In this document: piece after piece, positions 7,396 to 34,027 of the stretch
How the letters are laid out: every line of letters starts with the position of its first letter
Numbering within the stretch: the first letter of the stretch is position 1
Source: an uncultured Candidatus Micrarchaeota archaeon
GTDB taxonomy: Archaea; Micrarchaeota; Micrarchaeia; Burarchaeales; Fermentimicrarchaeaceae
Assembly: GCA_963760615.1 (NCBI GenBank)
Contig: CAVXDX010000012.1
Coordinates: forward strand, 3,338-67,337
Direction: 5' to 3'
Length of the DNA stretch: 64,000 nt
The notes under the pieces: generated by a model
What the model was told of the DNA's origin: nothing
Databases searched by the model: none
Seen by the model: only the letters and a program-made list of their open reading frames with translations
Made by a program: the position numbers and the translations under genes

Positions 7396-8769
7396 GTGGC
7401 TAAAACTAGCTACTCATTGGAGGTGAACGCGGTGAGTGAAAATGAGTTGAAGGAAGGGATACTCAAGAATGCAAAAAAGAACGGATTGAAGTTCGTGAGT
7501 CTGCAGTTTGTAGACATCTTTGGCGTTGCCAAAAACTGCGAGATAACCAGGGATAAACTGGAGGATGCACTCAACTCCGGTCTGTGGTTTGACGGCTCCT
7601 CCATTGAAGGGTTTGCTAGGATTCATGAAAGTGACATGCTGCTCAAGCCAGACCTAAAAACCTTCTGTTTTCTCCCGTGGACAGAGAATAAGGTTGCTAG
7701 GATAATGTGCGATGTTTATACAATCGATGAAAAACCTTTTGAAGGGGATCCAAGGGGGAATCTAAAACATTCTTTGAAGAAACTCAAAGAGGAGGGGTTT
7801 GAGTACAAGGTTGGACCTGAGCTTGAGTTCTTCTTTTTTAGGATGACGGACGGCCTTGCTCCGAATCCCGAGCCCCACGATGCTGGAAGCTACTGGGACC
7901 TGAGTCCGCTGGATTTGGCCGTGGATGTAAAAAGAGAGGTTATTGAGCAGATGGACCGCATGGGTTTGAACATAGAGAGAGGCTCACATGAGGTTGCCCC
8001 TGGACAGCATGAGATAGGTCTTGGATATGGTGATGCACTTTCAATAGCAGATAACGTTCTCACGTATAAGAATACTCTTAAGATGATAGCAAAGAAATAT
8101 GGGCTTTTTGCATCCTTCATGCCGAAACCAATTTTTGGGATAAACGGTTCTGGGATGCACACCCACCAGAGCATATGGAAAAACGGTAAGAATGCATTCT
8201 TCGACGCTGATGATAAGTACGGCCTTTCAAAAATTGCGCATCAATTCATCGCAGGCCAGCTCCACCACGCCAGACCGCTGGCTGGTGTTGTCGCACCAAC
8301 AGTCAACTCATACAAGAGGCTTGTTCCAGGCTATGAGGCACCGGTATACATCTGCTGGGCTCGGATAAACAGGTCTGCTTTGATAAGGGTGCCCAAATCG
8401 ATAAAGGGTAAGAGGGAAGCAAGCAGAATAGAGCTCCGATGCCCAGACCCGTCATGCAATCCGTACTTGGCTTTCGCTGCCATGCTCTCTGCAGGTTTTG
8501 ACGGAATCAAAAACAGGATGACTCCACCAGAACCGCTGGAAGAAAACGTATATCATTTTGATGACAAGAAACTGGAAAAACTTCGGATAGGAACGCTGCC
8601 TGCATCCCTCAGTGAAGCAACTACGGAGTTGGGCAGAAGCAGAGTTATGAGAGAAGCACTGGGCGAGTTTATATTTAACAAGCTGATTGAGATTCAGGAG
8701 AAACAGTGGGATGCCTACAGGACGCAGGTAACTCCTTGGGAGATAGAGAGGTATCTACCAATCCTCTGA
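7396..8769 (+). CDS. glnA: Glutamine synthetase type I; probable true start is GTG at 7432, preceded by SD GGAGGTGA
   Basis: FVSLQFVDIFG beta-grasp start and GS catalytic-domain motifs throughout. GGAGGTGA lies 6 nt upstream of GTG 7432. Confidence 0.85.
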   Translation: MAKTSYSLEVNAVSENELKEGILKNAKKNGLKFVSLQFVDIFGVAKNCEITRDKLEDALNSGLWFDGSSIEGFARIHESDMLLKPDLKTFCFLPWTENKVARIMCDVYTIDEKPFEGDPRGNLKHSLKKLKEEGFEYKVGPELEFFFFRMTDGLAPNPEPHDAGSYWDLSPLDLAVDVKREVIEQMDRMGLNIERGSHEVAPGQHEIGLGYGDALSIADNVLTYKNTLKMIAKKYGLFASFMPKPIFGINGSGMHTHQSIWKNGKNAFFDADDKYGLSKIAHQFIAGQLHHARPLAGVVAPTVNSYKRLVPGYEAPVYICWARINRSALIRVPKSIKGKREASRIELRCPDPSCNPYLAFAAMLSAGFDGIKNRMTPPEPLEENVYHFDDKKLEKLRIGTLPASLSEATTELGRSRVMREALGEFIFNKLIEIQEKQWDAYRTQVTPWEIERYLPIL

Positions 8770-8898: not shown

Positions 8899-10302
8899 TT
8901 AGGCAACTTCCTTCCCATCTCCTTTCTCAACTCTTCCGTACTCGCTCATGCCCGCCCTCCACAATGAGCCGTACCTCTCGTTCATCTGCTCCTCAATTGT
9001 TTTGCCTCTCTTCACTGCAACCTCAACATGCTTCTTCTCTATGAACTCGCTTCCCTCCACAGAGGCAATGTCTCCTGCAAGCTTTATTATCCCGCTCACT
9101 CCCCTCAGGCGCAGGGTTAATGCAGCAACATCGTCTATTGTTTTGGCCCTCTTCCTCGCCTCGCTTATTATCGCCTGGATTGCGCCTGCATCTGCATGCG
9201 GTATTCTGCCGTCCTTCACTATCTCCTGCGCCACGAACTGCACCATTTTCATCTGGTTCTCTTCAGTGTCATCCATATATGTTTTCAGCAGAACTTCGTA
9301 GCCGTTGCCTGTCATCCTTGACCTCAAGGGCGGGAGCAGCGAAGGCAAATCGCTCATGTTCAATGCAGCAACAAGTATGAAGTCGCATGGAACGGCATCA
9401 ACCCTCACAGATGCTCCTGTGCTCGACTCATTTCTTCCAGTCACTGGGAACTTCTTCTCCTGCATTGCTGTGAGTATGAACCTCTGCAGATAACCAAGAT
9501 TCGCTATTTCATCTACGAAAAGCACTCCCTCATGCGCCTCGTGAATCGCCCCTGGGACAACCCGCATATAGGGCAGCGTGCCTACCTCAGGATGCCCTCC
9601 GTATGGGTCGTGCCTCACGTCTCCGAGCAGCTCAGTCTCTGATGCGCCTGTTGCCTGCACAAATGTCTCCCTCTTTAGGGGCACTATTACCTTCCTAGGT
9701 CTCACTTCTGAATCAATGACCTTTGTGAGCGACTTCTGGTCATACACTCTCACCTTGTCCCCGTCCGCCCTCTCGTATACCATTATCTCCTCCTTCCCAT
9801 CCGGGCATTTCCTCGTTGCATATACACGGTCCTTTGTCTTTGTTGCATTCGTTGAGACAAAATCCTCAAATGGGGATACGCGCTTCATCTGCTTGTCAGA
9901 GCCGCAGTTGGGGCACACCTGAGGGTTCGTGCTGAGCACTCCGCACATTTCGCACCTGCAGCCCAGTTTCTCTGCAATATACTTTGGAATCTTGGAAACG
10001 GGAACTACCACGCCCTCCTCCCTGCTGCCTGAGCATGGCTTGAACTCCCTCACATCCAGCATAGGTCTTTCAGGGTTTGAGAAGTTGTGCAGCACTGCCA
10101 CCTCTTGCTTCGGCGGGGGTATCAGATGGGCCAGAGACTGGGCTATCATGCTCTTTCCGGTTCCCGGAGGGCCAACGAGAAGAAGATGTCTCCTCTGCCT
10201 TGAGGCTATTCTCGCTGCCTCAACTGCGCCACCCTGTCCTATTATCATTTCAAGCGGATCCTTGGGCAGAGCAACGTCTTTTGTGCTCCCCGGTAGGTCC
10301 AT
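8899..10302 (-). CDS. Lon-like AAA+ ATPase without a recognisable protease domain, with an internal Cys4 zinc ribbon
   Basis: IIGQGGAVEAARIASRQRRHLLLVGPPGTGKSM resembles the Lon/LonB Walker A region. LFVDEIANL is Walker B, with a sensor/arginine-finger region after it. A CxxC...CxxC insert is present. The protein ends at 467 aa with no Ser-Lys protease module. Confidence 0.5.
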   Translation of the reverse strand: MDLPGSTKDVALPKDPLEMIIGQGGAVEAARIASRQRRHLLLVGPPGTGKSMIAQSLAHLIPPPKQEVAVLHNFSNPERPMLDVREFKPCSGSREEGVVVPVSKIPKYIAEKLGCRCEMCGVLSTNPQVCPNCGSDKQMKRVSPFEDFVSTNATKTKDRVYATRKCPDGKEEIMVYERADGDKVRVYDQKSLTKVIDSEVRPRKVIVPLKRETFVQATGASETELLGDVRHDPYGGHPEVGTLPYMRVVPGAIHEAHEGVLFVDEIANLGYLQRFILTAMQEKKFPVTGRNESSTGASVRVDAVPCDFILVAALNMSDLPSLLPPLRSRMTGNGYEVLLKTYMDDTEENQMKMVQFVAQEIVKDGRIPHADAGAIQAIISEARKRAKTIDDVAALTLRLRGVSGIIKLAGDIASVEGSEFIEKKHVEVAVKRGKTIEEQMNERYGSLWRAGMSEYGRVEKGDGKEVA

Positions 10303-24453: not shown

Positions 24454-24585
24454 CTCTCAGTTACGATTTCAGTTTCAAGGTATATTAATATTGACTATAT
24501 TCGAGTAAAGCTAGCTTGAATATTTAAAAGAGATACATACGCCAGTTTGGGACAGACTCTGTTTCTTTAGGTTTTATAAAGACAA

Positions 24586-24599
24586 AAAGGCATAATTTA
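24586..24599 (+). promoter_or_regulatory. Conserved promoter-proximal 14-mer aaaggcataattta (copy 1) between TATA (24572-24580) and the ATG at 24603
   Basis: An exact 14/14 copy is also present at 25496-25509 and 28933-28946, each 4-5 nt upstream of a leaderless start. Confidence 0.6.
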
Positions 24600-24602
24600 A
24601 CC

Positions 24603-25475
24603 ATGCCAGAAAACGTCAAATTTACGGAAGAGCGAAACTCGGAAGAAAAGGTACCGAGAAGGGAGCACCTCCAGCCTATCAAGGAGATTATCCACCAATT
24701 ACATAAAAAGAAATTTGTCGAGCCAAGTTCAGTGAAAGCTGTGCTGCTGTATATAGAAATGGATTGGGGGAGCGGTGAGCTGCAGAAATGGGCTGATGAG
24801 GTTGAACGGAAAAAAGAGAGACTAGAAAAAAAGTTTAAGGTAAATGAGAAGCTCACCACTGAGATAAAAAGCATAATTGAGAGAGTGGGCACAGGTGTTC
24901 TAAGCGAGGATGAAATGAAAGAGGCTGAGAGGAGATTCAAAGGAGCGAAATATGCGTGGAGCCGCTATTCCATTATCCCTCTTATTGTCAAGGGTGGGCA
25001 AACAGCAGGCCATATTGAGCTGCTTAGAACTGCCCCGTTATTGGATGAGGTAGCGAGTTACGGGATAAAACTTCACGAGTCCGCCCATTTTATTCATCTT
25101 TTCATAGTTGAGAAGCGCCTTGAGAGCGGGGATATCAAAGACCCGATAATGAAAAGGCTTTATGAGTACATGCACGGGAAATATAGCAACGAGATAATTG
25201 ATGCCGCGGTGCGCGGCTATATCGGCCCGCGATATCAGGAGACCGTGGCGGAGGCTCTCATGTACTGCGTGCTGCACAAGGGCGAAACACCTGACAAGCA
25301 CAGGGATTTCAGGGTGGCTGACGAATTCAGGCTGCTCGGACATGACGTCAAGGAGCTGGGAAACCTTTTCAAAAGCAACCCTGAGACATTCAGAAAGCTC
25401 GTGGAAAACCCCTCATGGTGGGTGGAAGCTGGCAGCGTTGAAAAACTTGTTGAAAAGTTGAAGGAACCGGGCTAG
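24603..25475 (+). CDS. Hypothetical protein with an HExxH motif, candidate zincin-like metallopeptidase; first gene of the island promoter family
   Basis: LHESAHFIH, with a downstream ETVAEALMY as a possible third ligand. Leaderless with TATA at -30. The conserved 14-mer aaaggcataattta ends 4 nt before the ATG. Confidence 0.4.
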   Translation: MPENVKFTEERNSEEKVPRREHLQPIKEIIHQLHKKKFVEPSSVKAVLLYIEMDWGSGELQKWADEVERKKERLEKKFKVNEKLTTEIKSIIERVGTGVLSEDEMKEAERRFKGAKYAWSRYSIIPLIVKGGQTAGHIELLRTAPLLDEVASYGIKLHESAHFIHLFIVEKRLESGDIKDPIMKRLYEYMHGKYSNEIIDAAVRGYIGPRYQETVAEALMYCVLHKGETPDKHRDFRVADEFRLLGHDVKELGNLFKSNPETFRKLVENPSWWVEAGSVEKLVEKLKEPG

Positions 25476-25495
25476 TGACAATCTTAAAAAGGAGA

Positions 25496-25509
25496 AAAGG
25501 CATAATTTA
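25496..25509 (+). promoter_or_regulatory. Conserved promoter-proximal 14-mer aaaggcataattta (copy 2)
   Basis: Identical 14-mer. TATA tcttaaaaa at 25482-25490. ATG at 25514. Confidence 0.6.
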
Positions 25510-25513
25510 GGAT

Positions 25514-26479
25514 ATGCCAGCATACAAGAAAGAGAAGGCGGAGGGCATATCAGAAAGCCACCCTGCTTCGAAAGTTGACGTCTTCCCAGACCACCTAAAC
25601 ACCAAGATTGGGGATTACAAAGTTCGCATAGACAAGGATGGGGTAAAAGCAAGGAAGGAAGTAAAGGACCTGACGGTTCAACTTGCGCGGATGGATTATG
25701 AACAGTGGTATTACCCGTCGTTAGGTCCGAATTTTGTAGATAAGAAAGAAATTAAGGTGCCTTCCATTGATCTTGTCGTATCGTTCAGTTTTGAAGACCT
25801 ATCCAGTATAGCCGAGTTGAAGCCTAATGAGCTTAAGGGATATCCTGAAAGGACCTCCCAAAATTGGATAAATGTGAACGTTTCTGCAAAATTCCTTATT
25901 GACGATAGGGAGATGGATATGAAAGGATTCACCAGGGGAGTTGTCAAGCATTCAATGCCTCGTTGGCTTACTGACGCCAAGGAATCCAAGCTTCGTGATG
26001 CCATTATTCTTGATGATGATTTCCGCGGCAAGCTTGCCGGTGACATCAGGATGCTTGCCAGGAAGGTTGACTGGATGCTGAAATTCGACCCAAATGCCTC
26101 TGTGTCATTCAAAGCGCTAATGGCTGCAAAGAAGGCGGGGATAGAAAACTTCGACAGAGAAGTCGAGAGTCTGACAATACAGGTTTTGGAAATATCAGAG
26201 AAATGCGATGTTTTCAAGAACCCGGACGCCCTGCTTCAACTGGCCGTTAAGGCAAGGGAACAGGAAAATGGCGAAGCCATAGTTCTTAAACTTGGCGTCG
26301 ACCTTTTCATGGCAGCCCAATTCATCCGAGATGAAGCTAATAAGACGACTGACCCCGCTGCCAAGGCTTTCCGGGAAAACCAGGCAAAAAAACTGTATGC
26401 GCTTAGCCAGCTATTCCATGATTACGCTCTAAAGGACTTGAATGAAAAGAGAGACAAGAAGTCCAAGAAGGAGTCATAG
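25514..26479 (+). CDS. Hypothetical protein (321 aa, K/E-rich); carries the same conserved promoter-proximal 14-mer
   Basis: Clean ORF starting ATGCCAG with the 14-mer and TATA upstream. No recognisable domain. Confidence 0.4.
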   Translation: MPAYKKEKAEGISESHPASKVDVFPDHLNTKIGDYKVRIDKDGVKARKEVKDLTVQLARMDYEQWYYPSLGPNFVDKKEIKVPSIDLVVSFSFEDLSSIAELKPNELKGYPERTSQNWINVNVSAKFLIDDREMDMKGFTRGVVKHSMPRWLTDAKESKLRDAIILDDDFRGKLAGDIRMLARKVDWMLKFDPNASVSFKALMAAKKAGIENFDREVESLTIQVLEISEKCDVFKNPDALLQLAVKAREQENGEAIVLKLGVDLFMAAQFIRDEANKTTDPAAKAFRENQAKKLYALSQLFHDYALKDLNEKRDKKSKKES

Positions 26480-26530
26480 ACGTTTTTCTGACATTTCTGA
26501 AATCATCTAGGCTTTCTTCTGGTTGAGGTA

Positions 26531-26548
26531 ATGTAACTATGGTTACAC
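26531..26548. promoter_or_regulatory. 18-bp palindrome atGTAACtatgGTTACac (GTAAC-N4-GTTAC), candidate operator
   Basis: One of three near-identical palindromes in island intergenic regions. About 80 nt upstream of the 26612 start. Confidence 0.5.
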
Positions 26549-26611
26549 AAACTACATGGAAAGGAAGTCAGTTTCTTTATGGTTTATAAGCTTAAAACGA
26601 GCAATTTTAGC

Positions 26612-27913
26612 ATGCCAGAAGCGCACAAGAAAGCAGTCTATACGCAGTCCTTGATAGACAACCCTAAGCTTTCAGAAGACAAGGTAACCGGTGAGTTCAA
26701 GGGATTCCCACTAGAATACAGGAACGGCGTGATATACCTAAGCAAGGAATACCACCACATACATGCAATTATAGAGTGGTGGGATGAGGGAACGAAGGAT
26801 TTTATCAAGAGACCGGTGGTATTCGATTCAGTCAAGGTTACTGCGGAATTCAGGGGGAAGGAATTCGCACATGGATTCTACGGGGAGGATATAACAATTG
26901 ACTGCGGTTACGCCACTGCGGAATTCAAGCTTGACGGGAAGAAGTACAAGGTGGATTACGGCATATTTGAAGGCGACAATTCTAGTTGGTATCTGAACTA
27001 CTACTCGGACTTCGACAATGACAAGAAAAGACTGTATTTCATGCGTCATTTCAACAGCAGAGTCATGGATGATTTCGTCCCATTCAGGGACCATGGGCTT
27101 GTGGATGTCCTCAGGTTTGACAAGCATGTTGCTCCGCTCTTCGAAATTGAGCTGGAAACAAGAAAGAAAAAGCATGAACTGGTTGAAGACTTGAAGCTGG
27201 AGGCGCAACAGATTGGCAGGCAATACGACATAGAAAGAAACCCCCTTCCTCTGCAGCCGATATTCAAGAGGGCCAAGGAAGCAGGGGTGGTTGATAAACT
27301 CATAGGCGGACTGAGGAGGTGGGCCATGGACAGAAGAGAGCACATGTCAGATTGGGGAGAGGAGACGAGGTGGGTTTCGATTGAAGAGATTGCAAGCGGA
27401 AGGAGAAGGGAGAGCTTTGAGGACTTGGCAAGGAGGACTCAGGCAGAGAGGCTTGACAAGATAGCAGATGCGCTTCAGAAGTTCAACCAGAAACCCACTA
27501 AACAGCAGGAGAAGGAATCTGCGGAATGGCTTGCCTTCGACAATGCGTTGAAGAAGGTTGATGGAATGATGGCTGAGGAAAAGGACTGGAGCAGGGATAC
27601 TGGTAAATTTGCCGCTCGTGTCATTGAGGAGATAAAGCCCATATGCGAGCCGAGAAAGTTTGCGGAAACCCTGAAAAGACTCATGGAGTTCAAGAAGGAT
27701 GATGGAGTGGTTGAGCAACTCTCTGCACTTTACAGCCCTATGTATTTCAGGAACTTCATCAGAATGATGGGTGGGGATATCAGCAATGAGGAACTTGAGG
27801 AGCTGTTCGGAAAGGGAAAGGAGCGCCTGGGAGAGTATGTGAGAGGCGTGGCTGATGAGACCAAGGGGAGGGAGCTTCTTCTTTTGAGCGAGGAGATTCT
27901 GAAGAGATGCTGA
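26612..27913 (+). CDS. Hypothetical protein (433 aa); start reassigned to the ATGCCAG at 26612, not the track start at 26579
   Basis: The ATGCCAG start context is shared with the two upstream genes. TATA gtttataag sits at -30 relative to 26612. The GTAAC-N4-GTTAC palindrome sits at -80. Confidence 0.4.
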   Translation: MPEAHKKAVYTQSLIDNPKLSEDKVTGEFKGFPLEYRNGVIYLSKEYHHIHAIIEWWDEGTKDFIKRPVVFDSVKVTAEFRGKEFAHGFYGEDITIDCGYATAEFKLDGKKYKVDYGIFEGDNSSWYLNYYSDFDNDKKRLYFMRHFNSRVMDDFVPFRDHGLVDVLRFDKHVAPLFEIELETRKKKHELVEDLKLEAQQIGRQYDIERNPLPLQPIFKRAKEAGVVDKLIGGLRRWAMDRREHMSDWGEETRWVSIEEIASGRRRESFEDLARRTQAERLDKIADALQKFNQKPTKQQEKESAEWLAFDNALKKVDGMMAEEKDWSRDTGKFAARVIEEIKPICEPRKFAETLKRLMEFKKDDGVVEQLSALYSPMYFRNFIRMMGGDISNEELEELFGKGKERLGEYVRGVADETKGRELLLLSEEILKRC

Positions 27914-28034
27914 ACAGCCAGCACACGGGCTCCTGACAGGAAGTTTGGGAGGGGGCAGCAGACGATTAGCGGAAAGTTACCCCTTGCCAATGTTTTTAAA
28001 CGACAAACCTAGTATCAATACAGAGGCGGGGTAA

Positions 28035-28481
28035 TTGGATGTTCTTTTAGATACAAATGTCTACCTGGCGCATATAAAAGGTGAAATGCAGGGCTCTCAT
28101 GCAAAAATTATACTGGAAAGGGTGGCAGCAGGGGAGCTTGCCCTTTGCTACAACGGCATAATCCGGATGGAAATAGAGAGAAAGTATGGGTATTACCTAG
28201 AACCGTTTTGCGCCATACTCGAAGAGCTGAGAAAATTAGGCAGAGTTGTGGATGTTGAAATCACAAATGAGATGAGTGAAAAGGCAATACAACTCGATAG
28301 GAAGCTGATAAAATACAGAAGAGGAAAGGAAGAAAGATTCGGAAAGATTGATTGCTTGCTGATACTTCTTGCAAAGAAACATGGATGCATGCTTGTGACT
28401 ATTGAGAAAGAATTAATTGAAGCCGCAAGAGAAGAGGGAGTCAAGGCAGTCAGTCCAATGGATCTAGCGATGAGTTTCTAG
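28035..28481 (+). CDS. PIN-domain (VapC-like) nuclease, TTG start
   Basis: LLDTNVYL N-terminal acidic motif and further conserved acidic positions in a 148-aa PIN-sized protein. Confidence 0.6.
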   Translation: MDVLLDTNVYLAHIKGEMQGSHAKIILERVAAGELALCYNGIIRMEIERKYGYYLEPFCAILEELRKLGRVVDVEITNEMSEKAIQLDRKLIKYRRGKEERFGKIDCLLILLAKKHGCMLVTIEKELIEAAREEGVKAVSPMDLAMSF

Positions 28482-28793
28482 GTTCGCTTCCTTTATGAGC
28501 ATGCCCAGAGCTTTACGTTCATTGTTATCCGCCCTCTTTAGAAAATCTTTCCACAACGATTTTCTGGCTGCCCTTCCTAGTTTTGCTGCGCTCTTTGCTC
28601 TATCTCGTTTAACACTCCCGAAAGTCTCCTCAATAATCTTTAATGCCCTTTGTCTTAAAAGTTCAGTCTTTCCTAATTTACTCATATCTTTTACGGCCTC
28701 ACTTCTAGAGGTATAGTATCCTTCTTTAACCAGAATATCTATCTCCTCAACGTCTTTTACTGCATACCGAACTGGTACGACAATGGATTTCAT
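28464..28793 (-). CDS. Ribbon-helix-helix (CopG/VapB-like) DNA-binding protein
   Basis: MKSIVVPVRYAVKDVEEIDILVKEGYYTSRSEAVKDM is the RHH beta-strand plus EEID...SRSEA helix pattern. Convergent with the PIN gene and overlapping it by 18 nt. Confidence 0.5.
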   Translation of the reverse strand: MKSIVVPVRYAVKDVEEIDILVKEGYYTSRSEAVKDMSKLGKTELLRQRALKIIEETFGSVKRDRAKSAAKLGRAARKSLWKDFLKRADNNERKALGMLIKEANLETHR

Positions 28794-28895
28794 TGTATAC
28801 TAAAGCGTATACAGTATTTAAAAGCTTTTGCTGTTCGTATTAAGCCGAATTGTTATTTCATCAAGATTGATAGAATGACCAAGAGGGACGGGGGA

Positions 28896-28913
28896 ATGTA
28901 ACCCGGGTTACAA
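28896..28913. promoter_or_regulatory. 18-bp palindrome atGTAACccggGTTACaa, candidate operator
   Basis: In the divergent intergenic region between the RHH gene (28793) and the 28951 gene. Confidence 0.5.
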
Positions 28914-28932
28914 AGCAGGCTTAAATATCGGG

Positions 28933-28946
28933 AAAGGCATAATTTA
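28933..28946 (+). promoter_or_regulatory. Conserved promoter-proximal 14-mer aaaggcataattta (copy 3)
   Basis: Identical 14-mer. TATA gcttaaatat about 28918-28927. ATG at 28951. Confidence 0.55.
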
Positions 28947-28950
28947 AGGC

Positions 28951-29118
28951 ATGACAGAGGCAAAAAAGCCGGCTGCCAGCATGAGAAAAGATATAGAGCG
29001 GCAGCAGGAGAAGATGAGGGAGCTGTTCGACGAGCTCAAAGAAACCGTGAGCAAACCCAAATGGGATGAGAAGCCGAAGGGGTTCTTCACCGCGCTTGAG
29101 AAAAAGCTCGGCAACTAA
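28951..29118 (+). CDS. Small hypothetical protein (55 aa), not in the supplied ORF track
   Basis: Read directly from the + strand: MTEAKKPAASMRKDIERQQEKMRELFDELKETVSKPKWDEKPKGFFTALEKKLGN. Preceded by the conserved aaaggcataattta 14-mer and TATA. Confidence 0.4.
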   Translation: MTEAKKPAASMRKDIERQQEKMRELFDELKETVSKPKWDEKPKGFFTALEKKLGN

Positions 29119-29917: not shown

Positions 29918-30237
29918 CTCCAGCCCTTACTCGCTAGAAAGGTTTTTAAATCGCCTCTTACAAAACTAGTAACAGTTATGTAAGAGGTGGTAGCGGGAGA
30001 GGTCATGGTTACACGTGTACCCTCCCCCATCTCTTTCTAGTTTTCAAAACTGCTATAATTTTGGAAGTAAAAGTTTTAATAACATATTGTCCAACAAATT
30101 CAGTCGCTCCGACGAGAAGATGCCGGAATGTGAGTTCTGCTGGTTCAATCGAAGTATTTTATACCCGAATTGAAGATGCTGGTTTTTGTGCGAGTTGAGA
30201 GGCAGATATTTAAACCGAAAAATGCATAACTTATTCC

Positions 30238-30479
30238 GAGTGATGAGCCGGCAGCTTTCCCGCAAGGGAGGAAGTTCCACCCATCGCGAAGGCTGAGGGA
30301 ACCTAAGGTTCGGACGGGAACAGAAACGAGACTGGCCGATTCAGATGAGGATGAAGCAATGAGATGGGTCGAGCCGGGTGAAACGCGCCCGTCGCAAAAG
30401 CAGGATGTGCGATGCAAGGCCTTTGAGCCGCTTAGTCCAATGCTGTCTAAAACAAAAGGTGGGCTATGGCTCGTCACTC
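30238..30479 (+). ncRNA. rnpB: RNase P RNA (compact, about 242 nt)
   Basis: P1 is 12 bp: GAGUGAUGAGCC pairs with GGCUCGUCACUC. P2 is GGCAGC/GCUGUC. P3 is a hairpin with a GCAA loop. CR-I is GGAGGAAGUUCCACCC (E. coli has GGAAAGUCCGGGC). CR-V is ACAAAAGGUGGGCUAUGG (E. coli has ACAGAACCCGGCUUAUCGG) with compensatory CCAC/GUGG in P4. A GGGUGAAAC (CR-II) segment and a GCAAGGCC (CR-III) segment are present. TATA atatttaaa sits about 28 nt upstream. Confidence 0.8.
30433..30479 (+). repeat. 47-bp perfect direct repeat, copy 1 (3' end of rnpB); att-like
   Basis: tagtccaatgctgtctaaaacaaaaggtgggctatggctcgtcactc is identical to 31673-31719. Degenerate similarity extends about 20 nt further 5'. Confidence 0.85.
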
Positions 30480-30989: not shown

Positions 30990-31041
30990 TCCGAGATTTA
31001 TAAAGTTTCACACCGGGGGCTTTTTTTCCAGCAGAATGCGC

Positions 31042-31362
31042 TTATAACTCCGTATGGATTACCTTGAGGAGCAGACCGTCCTTTATCTTTTCGAACAGCA
31101 CAAGGTCCTTGTCATGAATCTTCTCCTCCTCAACCAGCTTCTCAGGCAGTGTGACCACTTTTGAATGCCCCACCACCCTCACCCTCCTGGCCAACGACTT
31201 CCTCCTGCCGGTCAGGACTTCCCACCTCAGCATTTCGCTTGAGGGAAAGAAGGTCTCGGAGCAGCCCTGGCACTTCCATCCTCTAATCCTGACGCCTTCG
31301 CTTACTTCCGTGTATTTTTTCAACGGTCCTTTGCAGATTGCGCATCTTTCCATAAACATCAC
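31042..31362 (-). CDS. Zinc-ribbon plus AbrB/SpoVT-like swapped-hairpin domain protein, putative antitoxin
   Basis: N-terminal CAICKG...CQGC ribbon. The C-terminal VVGHSKVVTLPEKLVEEEKIHDKDLVLFE resembles AbrB/MazE-fold DNA binders. Confidence 0.45.
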   Translation of the reverse strand: MMFMERCAICKGPLKKYTEVSEGVRIRGWKCQGCSETFFPSSEMLRWEVLTGRRKSLARRVRVVGHSKVVTLPEKLVEEEKIHDKDLVLFEKIKDGLLLKVIHTEL

Positions 31363-31613
31363 CTCACAAGCTTCAGATGAATTAATATAATCTCCTTGTC
31401 AGTTTCGGCATAGACAAGCTCCCAAACTCCATTTTTTGCTTTCCTCTCAACCCTTACCTTCTCCTTGGATTCCTTCTCATGCTCTCCTTTCTCCAGGATT
31501 TCCAGAACAAAATCCAGATTTTTCCTGTATATGTTGTAAAGTTCATTCTTGAAATGCCCTGTCTCAATCAAATCTTTGTTCTTGAATCGCAGCTCTTCAG
31601 GCATATATCTCAA
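31359..31613 (-). CDS. RelE/ParE-like small protein (84 aa), putative toxin
   Basis: The C-terminal GVWELVYAETDKEIILIHLKLVR resembles the RelE/ParE beta-sheet region. Overlaps the downstream AbrB-like gene by 4 nt. Confidence 0.4.
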   Translation of the reverse strand: MRYMPEELRFKNKDLIETGHFKNELYNIYRKNLDFVLEILEKGEHEKESKEKVRVERKAKNGVWELVYAETDKEIILIHLKLVR

Positions 31614-31672
31614 CTGAGTAAAGTATATACTCTTGGATATTTATATATCTTTCTATAATTGAGGCTTTGCTG

Positions 31673-31719
31673 TAGTCCAATGCTGTCTAAAACAAAAGGT
31701 GGGCTATGGCTCGTCACTC
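31673..31719 (+). repeat. 47-bp perfect direct repeat, copy 2 (displaced partial rnpB 3' end); att-like
   Basis: Identical 47-mer with a gapped similar 5' extension (ggctttgctgtagtcc versus ggcctttgagccgcttagtcc). Confidence 0.85.
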
Positions 31720-31736
31720 ATTATTGTTTATTGTGT

Positions 31737-32612
31737 TCAGGCGATTCCGTACTGTTTTTTTATCTCCTCGAAAGTAGGCAGGGCAAACTCCTTTCTTGCT
31801 TTTACTACTTCCTGAAAATCCTCAGGATTGACCCCGAGCTTCTTGGCTATGTCCTTCACATCTAACAGCTTAACCTTTGAAAGCTTTACTACTCCGAACC
31901 AGTGCATCGCCCTCACGTCATCCCAGAGAAGCTCGCCATTGGGGTTTTTCGCCAGCTCTTCTATTATCTCCTTCCTGGCTGCATAAATCTTGTCGTCATC
32001 CCCGAGAATCCTGTTGTTGAAAAAAAGAAAGATTTTCGCAAACGTGACTTCCTCCATGTCTTCAGATTTTTTGCTGCCATCTGAAGGTTTGAAATTTCTT
32101 ATTCTCTCTTTTGTTTCCTCAAGTTCGAAGATACGACCTCTGAGTTTCATGTTTTCATCTCCAAACTCGTGCATCACCAAGCTCGTTTCATGGTTATTGC
32201 TCTCATCCCTCAGTAGGACATGCACATCAACATCGCTCCTTGCCCCTGCGGTTCCTTTTGCCCAGCTCCCCATAAATGAAAGTCCTATAAACTTGTCCCC
32301 GTTAATGAATTTTAGCGCTTTCTCAGCTCTCCCCAGCAGCTCTATGAGTTCTTCATAGCGCTGTTTTTCCAAAGCAGTGCCCTTTCTACCTATAAACTCC
32401 GGGTATTCGGCTGACTTGAGGACTTCCGCCCTTGCGGCCTGCTTCAGCTCATTCTTGAATGACTTCGTGAGAAACTTTTCAGCAGCAGCCCTTTCGTCAT
32501 CTGACAGGATGCTTTTCTTCAGGGCTTCCTTGAAGTCTGAGCCTATCTCATCCCTGAGTTTTTGCTCTATCTGCTTGTCCTTTGAAATTTTCTGCATGTC
32601 TAGATTAGGCAT
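31737..32612 (-). CDS. Polymerase-beta-superfamily nucleotidyltransferase domain protein (291 aa)
   Basis: GSWAKGTAGARSDVDVHVLL is the hG[GS]x9-13Dh[DE]h NTase motif. The protein is much longer than a minimal MNT. The GTAAC-N4-GTTAC palindrome sits at -85. Confidence 0.55.
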   Translation of the reverse strand: MPNLDMQKISKDKQIEQKLRDEIGSDFKEALKKSILSDDERAAAEKFLTKSFKNELKQAARAEVLKSAEYPEFIGRKGTALEKQRYEELIELLGRAEKALKFINGDKFIGLSFMGSWAKGTAGARSDVDVHVLLRDESNNHETSLVMHEFGDENMKLRGRIFELEETKERIRNFKPSDGSKKSEDMEEVTFAKIFLFFNNRILGDDDKIYAARKEIIEELAKNPNGELLWDDVRAMHWFGVVKLSKVKLLDVKDIAKKLGVNPEDFQEVVKARKEFALPTFEEIKKQYGIA

Positions 32613-32691
32613 TTCTTTCTATTTAATCTTGCCTCCCCCCCAACAACCAAATTAACCAGTAAGATTTCCCACCGGGGGCTTTTTTCCAGTT

Positions 32692-32709
32692 ATGTAACCA
32701 TGGTTACAT
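32692..32709. promoter_or_regulatory. Perfect 18-bp palindrome atgtaaccatggttacat, candidate operator
   Basis: Perfectly self-complementary. About 85 nt upstream of the nucleotidyltransferase gene start (32612). Confidence 0.55.
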
Positions 32710-32788: not shown

Positions 32789-33070
32789 CTAGTCCGCCCC
32801 GCACCAGAATCCGCCGTACTTCTTTATGTACTTCTCCTCCTGCTTGAAATGCTTCCTGCAGAGGTAGCTCCATCCCGAGTCCTTTCCGATGTGGTAAACC
32901 TCCTTGAATGGTTCATCGGTGCAGCCCTTATAATCGCAGAAATGCCCCTCCATGTATCTTCTGGCGCATTTCTCGGAGCAGAACTCGCCGTATTTCTTCA
33001 GGGAGACTGCCTTCCTGCCCGTTTTTCCATCGCACCATCTGCACTCTCTTTCTCTACGCATGGTATGCAA
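32789..33070 (-). CDS. Cys/His-rich small zinc-binding protein
   Basis: Multiple CxxC/HxxC pairs in 93 aa (CRWCDG...CSEKCARR...HFCDYKGC...CRKH). Confidence 0.35.
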   Translation of the reverse strand: MHTMRRERECRWCDGKTGRKAVSLKKYGEFCSEKCARRYMEGHFCDYKGCTDEPFKEVYHIGKDSGWSYLCRKHFKQEEKYIKKYGGFWCGAD

Positions 33071-33413
33071 CTGCCTTTATCGATTTCCTATGGGCCGCTC
33101 CTTCACCGACGGATTGTCTTATCAGCGCAAGCTCTATCTTCTTTATTTCTTGCACTATTGGGCTTGCCTCGTTGAGCTGGTAGAGCTTTATCCTGCCAAT
33201 CTGCCTTGTCACTTTCATTATGTTCCTTTCCTCAAGCCTGTCCCAGTATTTGTACAGGGTCGTCCAGCCAACTCCCGAGCCATTTGCTATTTCCTTCTTG
33301 GTGAAATCCCGCAGTCTGTTCTCCAGTAGGAAATCAATTATTCTGAATAATGGCGTGTCCCCGAAAAATTCAAGAAGAAGGGAACTACCACCGCTAGGGT
33401 CGCCAAGACTCAC
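33054..33413 (-). CDS. Winged-helix transcriptional regulator
   Basis: LFRIIDFLLENRLRDFTKKEIANGSGVGWTTLYKYWDRLEERNIMKV shows a wHTH pattern. Divergent from the 33560 gene. Confidence 0.5.
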   Translation of the reverse strand: MSLGDPSGGSSLLLEFFGDTPLFRIIDFLLENRLRDFTKKEIANGSGVGWTTLYKYWDRLEERNIMKVTRQIGRIKLYQLNEASPIVQEIKKIELALIRQSVGEGAAHRKSIKAVAYHA

Positions 33414-33903: not shown

Positions 33904-34027
33904 GCCAAGGTAGCTCAGCTTGGTTAGAGCACCAGACTCATAAGCTCAGCTTCATGAGTGATGAGCGCTATGCGCGATGATATGCTGCGTAATCTGGGTG
34001 TCGCGAGTTCAAATCTCGCCCTTGGCA
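33904..34027 (+). tRNA. tRNA-Met (anticodon CAU) with a 49-nt intron (33943-33991) at the canonical 37/38 position
   Basis: Acceptor GCCAAGG/CCTTGGC, D-arm GCTC...GAGC, anticodon stem CCAGA/TCTGG, loop CTCATAA, T-arm GCGAGTTCAAATCTCGC. Intron segment AUGAGU pairs with ACUCAU of the anticodon region (BHB-type helix). No CCA is encoded. Confidence 0.75.

Follow-up and report, generated by a model that had tools for sequence, protein, structure and literature searches.

The stretch of DNA analysed here (from here: the window) spans 64 kb and comes from Candidatus Micrarchaeota. Micrarchaeota are tiny symbiotic archaea of the DPANN group. The 14-mer AAAGGCATAATTTA occurs in the window in three exact copies, at positions 24586-24599, 25496-25509 and 28933-28946, all on the + strand. 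These are the same sites at which a preliminary description of this DNA had placed an identical 14-mer in front of three genes. The 14-mer is the promoter-proximal part, from about -17 to -4, of a cassette of ~55 bp that consists of the BRE-like purine-rich stretch AAGCAAGC, the TATA box TTAAATAT, 4–5 variable nt, the sequence AAA-NN-CATAAT-TTA, a further 3–5 nt and the start context ATG-NCN-GAR. The following features were annotated in the window:

24561..24611, +, cassette c1: TATA box 24573-24580, 14-mer 24586-24599, ATG 24603; model score 28.9 bits; left copy of a duplicated cassette bordering a 2-kb insertion
24603..25475, +, gene for a 290-aa protein (MPENVKF...) of an orphan family
25475..25522, +, cassette c2: TATA box 25484-25491, 14-mer 25496-25509, ATG 25514; model score 40.6 bits; begins directly at the 290-aa gene's stop codon
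25514..26479, +, gene for a 321-aa protein (MPAYKKE...), N-terminal domain distantly paralogous to that of the 433-aa family
26532..26547, no strand, 16-bp palindrome TGTAAC-N4-GTTACA, after the 321-aa stop codon and before cassette c4
26570..26620, +, cassette c4 (variant B): TATA box 26583-26590, AAAACGAGCAATTTTA at 26594-26609, ATG 26612; right copy of the duplicated cassette
26612..27913, +, gene for a 433-aa protein (MPEAHKK...)
28897..28912, no strand, 16-bp palindrome TGTAACCCGGGTTACA, adjoining the BRE/TATA region of c3 on its upstream side
28913..28959, +, cassette c3: TATA box 28921-28928, 14-mer 28933-28946, ATG 28951; 48.4 bits, the best match to the family model
28951..29118, +, gene for a 55-aa protein (MTEAKKP...), corresponding to part of the interior of a 329-aa relative
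30207..30237, +, RNase P RNA promoter: TATA box 30207-30214, AAATGCATAACTTA at 30220-30233 (12/14 matches to the 14-mer), then TTCC
30238..30479, +, gene for archaeal RNase P RNA, a housekeeping function of the host, behind a relative of the cassette
32597..32640, -, degenerate cassette of a nucleotidyltransferase gene: TATA box 32619-32626, AAATGCCTAATCTA at 32601-32614 (11/14 matches); 12.7 bits

The nucleotidyltransferase gene probably has a leaderless ATG at 32597 (MQKISKD), and its alternative upstream ATG at 32612 lies inside the cassette. For the gene at 26612, the preliminary description had seen the start context ATGCCAG as the only part retained; this context is present, but so is the variant AAAACGAGCAATTTTA, which recurs elsewhere. 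Its reassignment of the start to 26612 is supported by homologues whose sequences start at this position with MPEAHKK. The shared ATGCCAG start holds for three genes, whereas the gene at 28951 starts with ATGACAG.

Allowing up to two mismatches, the 14-mer was matched five times in the window compared to 0.56 expected matches, and none of 100 shuffled sequences reached five. The looser core AAANN[CA]ATAAT was found five times (1.6 expected), three of these within cassettes. An nhmmer model of the cassette detected the three strong copies and the weak nucleotidyltransferase copy in the window, and no others.

The 290-aa protein belongs to a family with 7 members among 5.8e9 proteins. The 433-aa protein combines an N-terminal beta domain with a helical C-terminal part and has no recognisable family or fold. 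The proteins of the island had been described as mutually dissimilar, which is contradicted by the distant paralogy of the 321-aa and 433-aa proteins: the intermediates L172_3602 and L126_12983 match both, with E-values of 1e-11 to 1e-18. The 55-aa product corresponds to residues 118–177 of its 329-aa relative at 53% identity. Many cassette genes form one mosaic paralogue network with the common N-terminus M-x-E-[AY]-[HK]-K. In addition, RHH, wHTH and AbrB-like proteins are encoded in the island.

Geometry and conservation of the cassette

In the exact copies of the window, the 14-mer lies 5–6 nt past the TATA box and 3–4 nt ahead of the ATG. The three TATA boxes are centred 26.5 nt before the first letter of the start codon (24603, 25514 and 28951); across the cassettes, this distance, measured to the ATG or to the 5′ end of RNase P RNA, is 25.5–27.5 nt. 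No Shine-Dalgarno sequence was found before the ATGs of the three genes with the exact 14-mer. This geometry fits leaderless transcripts, with +1 predicted from the TATA-to-ATG distance alone, and bears out the promoter order of TATA box, motif and leaderless ATG given previously. The cassette also occurs with a ~35-nt leader, in front of an M23 peptidase gene (L249 15633), and in front of a non-coding RNA gene; therefore it is a transcription signal rather than a translation signal.

A hairpin between GGCAT in the 14-mer region and ATGCC at the start codon had also been suggested. This stem is confined to two window copies, with DNA folding energies of -3.5 and -4.5 kcal/mol versus -0.2 and -0.9 kcal/mol in the other two, and the predicted transcript would start downstream of its 5′ arm. 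Given this inconsistency among copies, the hairpin is not supported.

The information profile was calculated from 24 cassettes that were not found via the exact 14-mer, but this set was gathered in part with a model trained on exact copies, leaving some ascertainment bias. Positions A1–A3 reached 1.4–1.7 bits, C6–T11 1.5–1.9 bits and the TATA box 1.0–1.7 bits, compared to ~0 in the spacers. AAA and CATAAT (-12 to -7) are kept at 92–100%, while the flanking spacers are randomised. Conserved G/C positions are C6 and a preference for GG at positions 4–5. The protein-ascertained subsets are small (n = 5 for the 290-aa homologues, n = 4 for the RNase P promoters). The five 290-aa homologues, found by protein similarity alone, share 46–65% identity and come from four different contexts. 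AAA, ATAATT, the start CATG and a few isolated columns are invariant in the 70 nt before their ATG. The RNase P promoters of four genomes, which are orthologous, keep TTTAAAC, AAA, CATAA, TA and TTCC, whereas the spacers and positions 4–5 and 11–12 drift. Hence, the earlier proposal that the 14-mer is under selection is upheld, with recurrence in at least 15 contigs, a core conserved like the TATA box and random spacers.

Distribution among relatives and candidate readers of the element

The cassette is not private to the island. Related Micrarchaeota contigs totalling ~254 kb contained 51 matches to the nhmmer model at a threshold of >=12 bits, each on the same strand as the gene that follows it, and the same geometry recurs in at least 15 of the related contigs. 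A genome scan gave single chance-level matches, almost all of them bacterial, with the exception of four matches, all showing the full architecture, that came from the Micrarchaeota genomes Sv326 and Sv368. P0012 is also assigned to Candidatus Micrarchaeota by its source. Besides the paralogue network, the cassette precedes unrelated genes such as an Eco57I-type restriction-modification enzyme (L122 12348, exact copy), a methyltransferase (L246 6908), a peptidase, a nucleotidyltransferase and orphan families. In four genomes it also precedes the gene for RNase P RNA, and it is found before genes in conserved host contexts. The host tRNA promoters of the window do not have the element, and neither do most leaderless host genes at the related loci. 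About one gene in eight carries it. The element therefore marks one promoter class and not a general optimum.

The preliminary description had interpreted the 14-mer as a repressor or activator site, for example of a viral or plasmid regulon. The viral or plasmid part of this proposal was not substantiated, as there were no PHROG matches and the cassette was absent from IMG/VR. A dedicated operator between TATA box and start, controlling accessory and defence genes, would account for sequence-specific conservation that includes G/C positions and exceeds mere A/T-richness. It would also suit the restriction of the element to about one gene in eight, mostly accessory ones in variable regions (restriction-modification, nucleotidyltransferase and orphan paralogue genes). 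Candidate regulators exist in the RHH, wHTH and AbrB-like proteins, and the conserved palindrome TGTAAC-N4-GTTACA beside many cassettes resembles the operator of a dimer. Archaeal repressors such as MDR1, Phr, the TrmB family and viral RHH regulators do bind between TATA box and start, where a bound protein would block polymerase recruitment, as it would at the element described here. However, such operators are usually dyad-symmetric, vary in position between promoters and are linked to a regulator gene. In contrast, the 14-mer has no dyad symmetry and no linked regulator. It behaves like a core element in that neither its orientation nor its distance from the TATA box varies; the 16-bp palindrome fits an operator better. 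About half of the copies lack the GGCAT/ATGCC dyad, which depends on the variable second codon. Moreover, the element heads housekeeping RNase P RNA and genes in conserved host contexts, and the small regulators of the window were not found beside cassettes elsewhere, except for a syntenic wHTH cluster in L122. We therefore regard an operator as rather unlikely.

Alternatively, the cassette promoters might be read by a sigma-like alternative initiation factor, i.e. a one-repeat TBP or a paralogue of TFB or TFE. If true, the flexible genome would have its own transcription channel. A class-specific factor would fit the one-in-eight distribution just as well, since the element is found in a subset of promoters only. 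In L128 and Sv326 (L152), cassette genes are immediately preceded by intact genes for one-repeat TBPs (103–116 aa, ~100 bits to PF00352, 85–92% identity between genomes), and another such gene is located in the L249 island. Apparently functional single-domain TBP proteins exist in some archaea (PMC3597702). Nevertheless, we consider this explanation improbable: the gene is absent from the 64-kb window, the distinctive part of the cassette lies downstream of the TATA box and outside the TBP contact, and adjacency in two or three loci may reflect a coincidence of island content.

Gene gain and loss between cassettes

Comparison with relatives showed the region to be variable. In the syntenic relative L122, a single cassette (9959-10009) aligns to both 24561-24611 and 26572-26620 of the window. 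The 2.0 kb between the duplicated cassettes, with the 290-aa and 321-aa genes, are missing from L122 at this site. The close relatives L232, L122 and L128 have different gene sets behind the same cassettes, and L126 contains an array of ten consecutive genes with one cassette before each. Genes are thus gained and lost between cassettes.

Promoter duplication had been named as the alternative to regulation, and c1 and c4 are indeed a duplicated pair around the 2-kb insertion. Recent duplication or gene conversion among paralogous genes, with no function of the sequence itself, would also agree with the paralogue network and with exact identity reaching the weakly constrained positions 4, 5, 13 and 14. 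As the whole explanation it is very doubtful, because the core stands at 92–100% between randomised spacers, because the element is retained before homologues of 45–65% protein identity in unrelated contexts and before non-homologous genes (restriction-modification enzyme, methyltransferase, peptidase), and because four genomes retain it in their orthologous RNase P promoters, where neighbouring positions drift.

The single-gene arrays, the indels bordered by cassettes and the palindromes at cassette borders could also indicate an integron-like site of site-specific recombination, or the terminus of a small mobile element or of an integrated virus, with promoter activity being secondary. As in integron arrays, single-gene cassettes vary in content between strains. 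Integron cassettes, however, are promoterless, end in attC and are recombined by IntI, whereas here each cassette has its own promoter and neither an integrase nor an attC-like structure is present. No integrase, transposase or virus hallmark was found at any of the loci, the IMG/VR search likewise argues against a virus, and a 50-bp homology patch suffices for ordinary homologous recombination. This explanation is most improbable.

Proposed function and relation to known systems

From the observed conservation pattern, fixed geometry, distribution and cassette-bounded indel we conclude, with moderate confidence, that the cassette is a lineage-specific extended core promoter class of a Micrarchaeota (DPANN) clade for leaderless transcripts and, at the same time, a homology patch. 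Compared to the preliminary description, geometry, selection and variability are retained in this interpretation, while the viral regulon, the operator, the hairpin and the unrelatedness of the proteins are not. TBP and TFB would bind the TATA box and the BRE-like stretch, and the A-tract with CATAAT would form the upstream edge of the melting region, recognised by the basal transcription apparatus (TFB linker, TFE, RNA polymerase) or else required for melting. The start, presumably strong, would be set exactly at the A of the ATG, giving leaderless mRNAs; in the RNase P gene the same fixing would define the 5′ end of the RNA. The cassette may act as a homology patch because many neighbouring genes are preceded by the same 50-bp block, and recombination between cassettes would insert, delete and swap gene cassettes in hypervariable regions.

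The bacterial -10 hexamer TATAAT, at -12 to -7, is read by sigma factors. CATAAT is nearly identical and occupies the same position at the upstream edge of the melted region. To our knowledge, archaea have no sigma factors, and the likeness is probably due to a common requirement for easy melting and not to homology.

The cassette resembles archaeal core promoters in its purine-rich stretch, an 8-bp TATA box centred ~26–27 nt upstream of the start, A/T-richness at about -10 and a pyrimidine-purine step at -1/+1. A/T-rich promoter-proximal elements (PPE) near -10 are an established archaeal feature, mapped for example in Thermococcus onnurineus, and are known at -10 from the start codon of leaderless genes (PMC5316973). 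These PPEs were described as merely A/T-rich or with one preferred A, and as modulators of promoter strength (PMC5316973). In contrast, the element described here has a specific sequence, AAA-NN-CATAAT, that carries as much information as the TATA box, is found at only some of the promoters and is often identical at 14/14 positions between genes and genomes.

PeSLs are mobile cassettes found in the hyperplastic regions of T4-type phage genomes and composed of an early promoter and a stem-loop (Arbiol et al. 2010, PMC2839356). Both systems place near-identical short promoter cassettes before many unrelated, mostly orphan genes in hypervariable regions, with a small palindrome or stem-loop beside the promoter, and in both, insertions, deletions and replacements between close relatives are bordered by cassettes. 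The terminator role of the palindrome and the mini-circles are not part of this likeness. Unlike PeSLs, the cassettes described here reside in a cellular archaeal chromosome, contain a TATA/TFB promoter and include the leaderless start codon and the first codons.

The three identical window copies probably result from purifying selection on the core combined with recent recombination or duplication at the less constrained positions. Identity at 14 of 14 positions, including the weakly constrained positions 4, 5, 13 and 14, goes beyond selection on the core alone.

Geometry of the promoter cassette

The 14-mer AAAGGCATAATTTA, the promoter-proximal part of a cassette of about 55 bp, occurs in the window in three exact copies (24586, 25496 and 28933), all on the forward strand. 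Allowing up to two mismatches, five matches were observed versus 0.56 expected, which bears out the exact 14-mer between TATA box and ATG reported in the preliminary description. A fifth promoter relative was recognized by repeat finding.

24573-24580, 25484-25491 and 28921-28928, forward strand: TATA boxes of the exact copies, 5-6 nt upstream of the 14-mer
24603, 25514 and 28951, forward strand: ATG codons behind the exact copies, 3-4 nt downstream of the 14-mer
30208-30233: fifth promoter relative, ATTTAAACCGAAAAATGCATAACTTA
30238-30479: archaeal RNase P RNA gene (RF00373, 86.3 bits), 4 nt downstream of the fifth promoter relative

In the exact copies, 26.5 nt separate the TATA-box centre from the first base of the start codon, and Shine-Dalgarno sequences are absent. 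This geometry points to leaderless archaeal transcripts with predicted start sites. Across all four genes, that at 26612 included, and the RNase P RNA, whose 5′ end was taken from Rfam, the distance is 25.5-27.5 nt. In all four cassettes the base before the ATG is a pyrimidine (cA, tA, cA and cA), the G of the RNase P RNA likewise follows a C, and a C stands directly before the ATG in 75% of a set of 24 cassettes. Immediately upstream of the TATA box, where a core promoter would have its purine-rich BRE, the consensus is aAGCAaGc, with one A conserved at 96% and the remaining positions weak.

The gene at 26612, encoding a 433-aa protein, is preceded by the variant block AAAACGAGCAATTTTA. Its reassigned start was accepted because the homologues begin with MPEAHKK at the same position. 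This block, at 26594-26609, represents a second version of the -10 block, AAA(A/T)GAGC(A/T)AATTT(T)A, which occupies the same cassette position and recurs in the related contigs L126 (at 6710, 11631 and 14884 (minus strand)) and L249 (12750, 14581 and 15603); it may constitute a second promoter subclass.

The GGCAT...ATGCC hairpin noted previously is present in two of the four window copies, with folding energies of -3.5 and -4.5 kcal/mol compared to -0.2 and -0.9 kcal/mol in the other two, and in about half of all cassette copies. As an RNA structure it was rejected, since the predicted transcript would begin only after its 5′ arm, and the stem is missing from the other two window copies.

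Distribution of the element and conservation of its core

A cassette profile spanning -34 to +26 around the 14-mer was searched against ~254 kb of related contigs and yielded 51 matches at a cut-off of at least 12 bits, each oriented toward a downstream gene. Within the 64-kb window its matches were limited to the exact copies, at 28.9, 40.6 and 48.4 bits, plus one degenerate copy; the variant at 26612 and the RNase P copy scored near zero.

Minus strand: degenerate cassette before the nucleotidyltransferase gene (12.7 bits)

This degenerate cassette implies a leaderless start at 32597. No further cassette was found in the other ~54 kb of the window, and the element is absent from the host tRNA promoters there. 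Most host genes in the related loci lack it as well; some of these are preceded by a Shine-Dalgarno sequence, GGTGAT, and the others are leaderless but have different -10 sequences. Roughly one gene in eight carries the element. Because tRNA promoters and most host genes do without it, the element is not the generic start context of this organism, and an ordinary initiator context was rejected for the window. Nevertheless, the motif is not private to the island: it is a clade-wide promoter class, real and more general than the preliminary description had supposed. In related contigs it precedes a 437-aa orthologue (one mismatch) and an Eco57I-type restriction-modification gene (exact), and in L126 about ten consecutive genes each stand behind their own cTTAAATAt-N5-AAAGGCATAATTTA-like-N3-4-ATG.

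For wider scans the 14-mer followed by N{3,4}ATGNC was used; for the 14-mer alone, the matches listed from IMG/VR were single, random and uninformative. Across one genome per species, 45 stretches matched, roughly the chance level, as single matches and nearly all in bacteria. Two Micrarchaeota genomes were the exception: Ca. Fermentimicrarchaeum limneticum Sv326 (CP058998) and isolate Sv368 together have four matches, each showing the full architecture. Among 70 metagenomic stretches, 10 (GC 0.41-0.48) showed the architecture, several of these with further copies. One homologue was named Candidatus Micrarchaeota by its source. The two IMG/VR matches to the motif-plus-ATG pattern both lacked the architecture, and a check for hallmark genes (capsid, terminase, replication or integrase) gave no convincing PHROG match. 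A viral or plasmid origin thus found no support, and the viral or plasmid regulon initially suggested is not upheld.

The 24 cassettes, none of which was recovered via an exact 14-mer match, gave an information profile in which A1-A3 and C6-A7-T8-A9-A10-T11 of the 14-mer carry 1.4-1.9 bits each, compared to 1.0-1.7 bits for the TATA box. CATAAT, at -12 to -7 from the ATG, reaches 1.5-1.9 bits per position, the spacers on both sides are at ~0 bits, and positions 4, 5, 13 and 14 at ~0.6 bits. Searching only at the protein level recovered homologues of the 290-aa protein encoded at 24603 (46-65% identity); the cassette heads every one of them, in four contexts: behind an L1-L10-L12 operon, in the gap between ABC transporter and glucose-6-phosphate isomerase genes (two genomes) and in another island. 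Within the 70 nt upstream of their ATG the few invariant positions are AAA, ATAATT, CATG at the start and isolated columns. Likewise, when the RNase P promoter is aligned as an orthologous set from four genomes, TTTAAAC, AAA, CATAA, TA and TTCC stay unchanged, and the spacers vary, as do positions 4-5 and 11-12. Together, these patterns are a footprint of purifying selection on AAA-NN-CATAA(T), the housekeeping promoter included.

Core promoter, operator or dedicated initiation factor

The cassette matches the archaeal core promoter (BRE/TATA/PPE/Inr) in its TATA distance, in CATAAT near -10 and in the pyrimidine/purine initiator. The block is asymmetric and stands in a single orientation at a single distance from the TATA box throughout; moreover, it heads a non-coding RNA gene and also a gene with a leader of ~35 nt (L249, 15633). 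This is how a core promoter element behaves. Our preferred reading, held with somewhat better than even confidence, is that the cassette is a lineage-specific extended core promoter, which would direct the predicted leaderless start at the ATG, and that the repeated cassettes would serve in addition as a patch for recombination. For CATAAT, the comparison used the definition of the promoter-proximal element in PMC5316973.

The preliminary description had favoured a regulatory site, for instance a repressor or activator site overlapping the initiator. That the element is under selection agrees with the results, and its confinement to a subset of promoters would suit a dedicated factor. Nevertheless, an operator is unlikely: the 14-mer has neither a dyad nor repeated half-sites, and the GGCAT-N9-10-ATGCC dyad is inconstant among the copies. 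The element is not island-restricted, as it heads the RNase P RNA in four genomes and genes in conserved host contexts in the contigs L246, L248 and L251. A regulator gene travelling with the cassettes was sought in 20 related loci and none was found linked to the sites; the RHH, AbrB-like and other small proteins of the window have no homologues beside cassettes in these loci. The sole shared regulator neighbourhood is a syntenic wHTH cluster in the related contig L122. In the island, the RHH protein is encoded at 28464-28793, the wHTH protein at 33054-33413 and the AbrB-like protein at 31042-31362.

That an alternative initiation factor recognizes the cassettes as a promoter class is improbable, although single-domain TBP proteins are known (PMC3597702) and the following intact single-repeat TBP-domain genes of 103-116 aa (~100 bits to PF00352) were found.

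L128, 9574-9924: intact single-repeat TBP gene adjoining a cassette gene
L152 (Sv326), 209-538: intact single-repeat TBP gene adjoining a cassette gene
L249, 17466-17777, minus strand: single-repeat TBP gene within an island

These genes are 85-92% identical between genomes and two lie directly upstream of cassette genes; the window has none. Just upstream of the L128 gene, a tandem duplication of ~730 bp (8376-8537 and 9109-9270) holds identical ORFs of 53 aa, which have a promoter of their own, ggttaatatactgaaaaatctaac. A broader proposal, which we regard as doubtful, is that Micrarchaeota might possess a second, bacterial -10-like layer of promoter specificity, with AAA-NN-CATAAT (-17 to -7) read by a dedicated initiation factor. 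Candidates for it are a variant of TFB/TFE and the conserved single-repeat TBP whose gene neighbours cassette genes. In that case the flexible genome, with its defence genes and families of orphan paralogues, would have a transcription channel of its own, and portable promoter-plus-start-codon cassettes would drive shuffling and could even convert internal domains to separate leaderless genes.

The usual picture of an archaeal promoter is a BRE and a TATA box followed by only a loose A/T-rich region near -10. Here the -10 region is a defined sequence, conserved like the TATA box, in one promoter class only of a DPANN lineage. To our knowledge, transcription in this uncultivated lineage is unstudied, and no account of the element for Micrarchaeota or Fermentimicrarchaeum was found in the literature searched. 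It offers a concrete element for the in vitro study of promoter melting and start-site choice. For annotation, the cassette would mark true leaderless start codons, correcting the starts at 26612 and 32597, and it provides a handle on the reshuffling of accessory genes in small symbiont genomes.

Cassette genes, gene shuffling and the RNase P RNA region

All-against-all BLASTP showed a mosaic paralogue network among the cassette genes. The N-terminal domain of the 433-aa family is shared with proteins of 249-262 aa, which in turn match the 321-aa protein encoded at 25514 (E 5e-11 and 1e-17). The C-terminal part of this family corresponds to the N-terminal part of a 463-aa protein, and the 55-aa product of the gene at 28951 corresponds to residues 118-177 of a 329-aa protein. 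Hence, the earlier statement that the encoded proteins show no obvious similarity to each other does not hold for all of them. The 290-aa family, for which profile comparison with the 433-aa family revealed no relationship, carries the cassette outside the network, as do the restriction-modification enzyme, a methyltransferase and the nucleotidyltransferase. Many network members begin with M-x-E-[AY]-[HK]-K, which accounts for part of the conservation of ATGCCAGAA. The 290-, 321- and 433-aa proteins gave no Pfam, PADLOC or PHROG match; among 5.8 billion sequences, the family of the 290-aa protein comprises 7 and those of the 433- and 321-aa proteins 5 and 3, and a profile of the 433-aa superfamily recovered 15 representatives among 1.84 billion. 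An AlphaFold model of the 290-aa family was unusable (pLDDT 40).

The homologue-bearing contigs are partly syntenic with the window, with different genes between the backbones. The left backbone (VIT/VWA protein, helicase and cupin) is common to L122, the right one (PPS and a 413-aa protein) to L128, and L122, L128 and L232 carry different genes, the region being variable between relatives. The single cassette of L122 (9959-10009) aligns to window positions 24561-24611 and 26572-26620; its upstream side follows the first exact cassette and its downstream side the 433-aa gene. The 2.0 kb with the 290- and 321-aa genes between 24611 and 26572 are missing from L122, which on this alignment is a cassette-bounded insertion in the window or a deletion in L122. 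Either is the expected product of recombination between repeated cassettes. The alternative of recent promoter duplication gains from these two flanking copies, single in L122; as a whole account, neutral duplication or gene conversion has only a very slight chance. In the close relative L232, the 321-aa gene matches the window exactly in its 5′ coding end and in the 14-mer, but its TATA box and spacers differ, and other genes follow it.

The recombination-patch component resembles PeSL mobile regulatory cassettes in that near-identical promoter cassettes stand in hypervariable regions before unrelated, mostly orphan genes (families of 3-15 members) and in that indels between relatives are bounded by cassettes, as in the 2.0-kb insertion relative to L122. 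Promoter cassettes of T4-type phages mediate shuffling, and here a similar pattern is seen in a cellular genome. That the element is itself a site-specific recombination or mobile-element site is very improbable; regarding integrons, no integrase domain was detected in any locus, and an attC-like imperfect long inverted repeat is absent.

A 16-bp palindrome, TGTAAC-N4-GTTACA, often TGTAACCATGGTTACA, accompanies the cassettes with 14 sites (at most one mismatch) in 254 kb, compared to ~0.015 exact sites expected by chance. Nearly all lie in the gap separating a stop codon from the cassette that follows, some cassettes lack it, and it may be an operator or a terminator-like element.

26532-26547, 28897-28912 and 32693-32708: palindrome sites in the window, with 11 more in related loci

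The window is archaeal, as seen from an archaeal-type phosphopantothenate synthetase and a tRNA-Met (CAT) with a 51-nt intron (33904-34027; Rfam 57.6 bits, missed by ARAGORN), located at the right-hand boundary of the variable region. The 3′-terminal 47 nt of the RNase P RNA gene (30433-30479) are repeated 1.2 kb downstream at 31673-31719, and 25-nt copies of the RNase P 3′ end occur downstream of RNase P in L232 (6559-6583) and L212 (3989-4013). These repeats look like an att-site duplication, and the RNase P RNA 3′ end may be an integration target, which would be unusual. Relative to L122, the window has a 1.6-kb insertion (31026-32664) bounded by a direct repeat of ~20 nt, CACCGGGGGCTTTTTT, at 31001-31026 and 32660-32685; besides the nucleotidyltransferase gene and the 3′ fragment of RNase P, it contains genes for an AbrB/MazE-like protein and for an 84-aa product. 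The segment 32725-32788, with the short inverted repeats TTTTGTTACAGTAACAAAA and TTTTGTTATAATAACAAA, is 91% conserved in L232 and L212, where it adjoins their partial copies of RNase P, and may be the end of the inserted element.

A PIN gene (28035-28481) converges on the minus-strand RHH gene (28464-28793), and its 3′ end shares 18 nt with the latter. Upstream of the RHH gene, at 28794-28830, two GTATAC hexamers (gtatacgctttagtatac, minus strand) are located between its TATA box and ATG and are a plausible candidate for an autoregulation operator.
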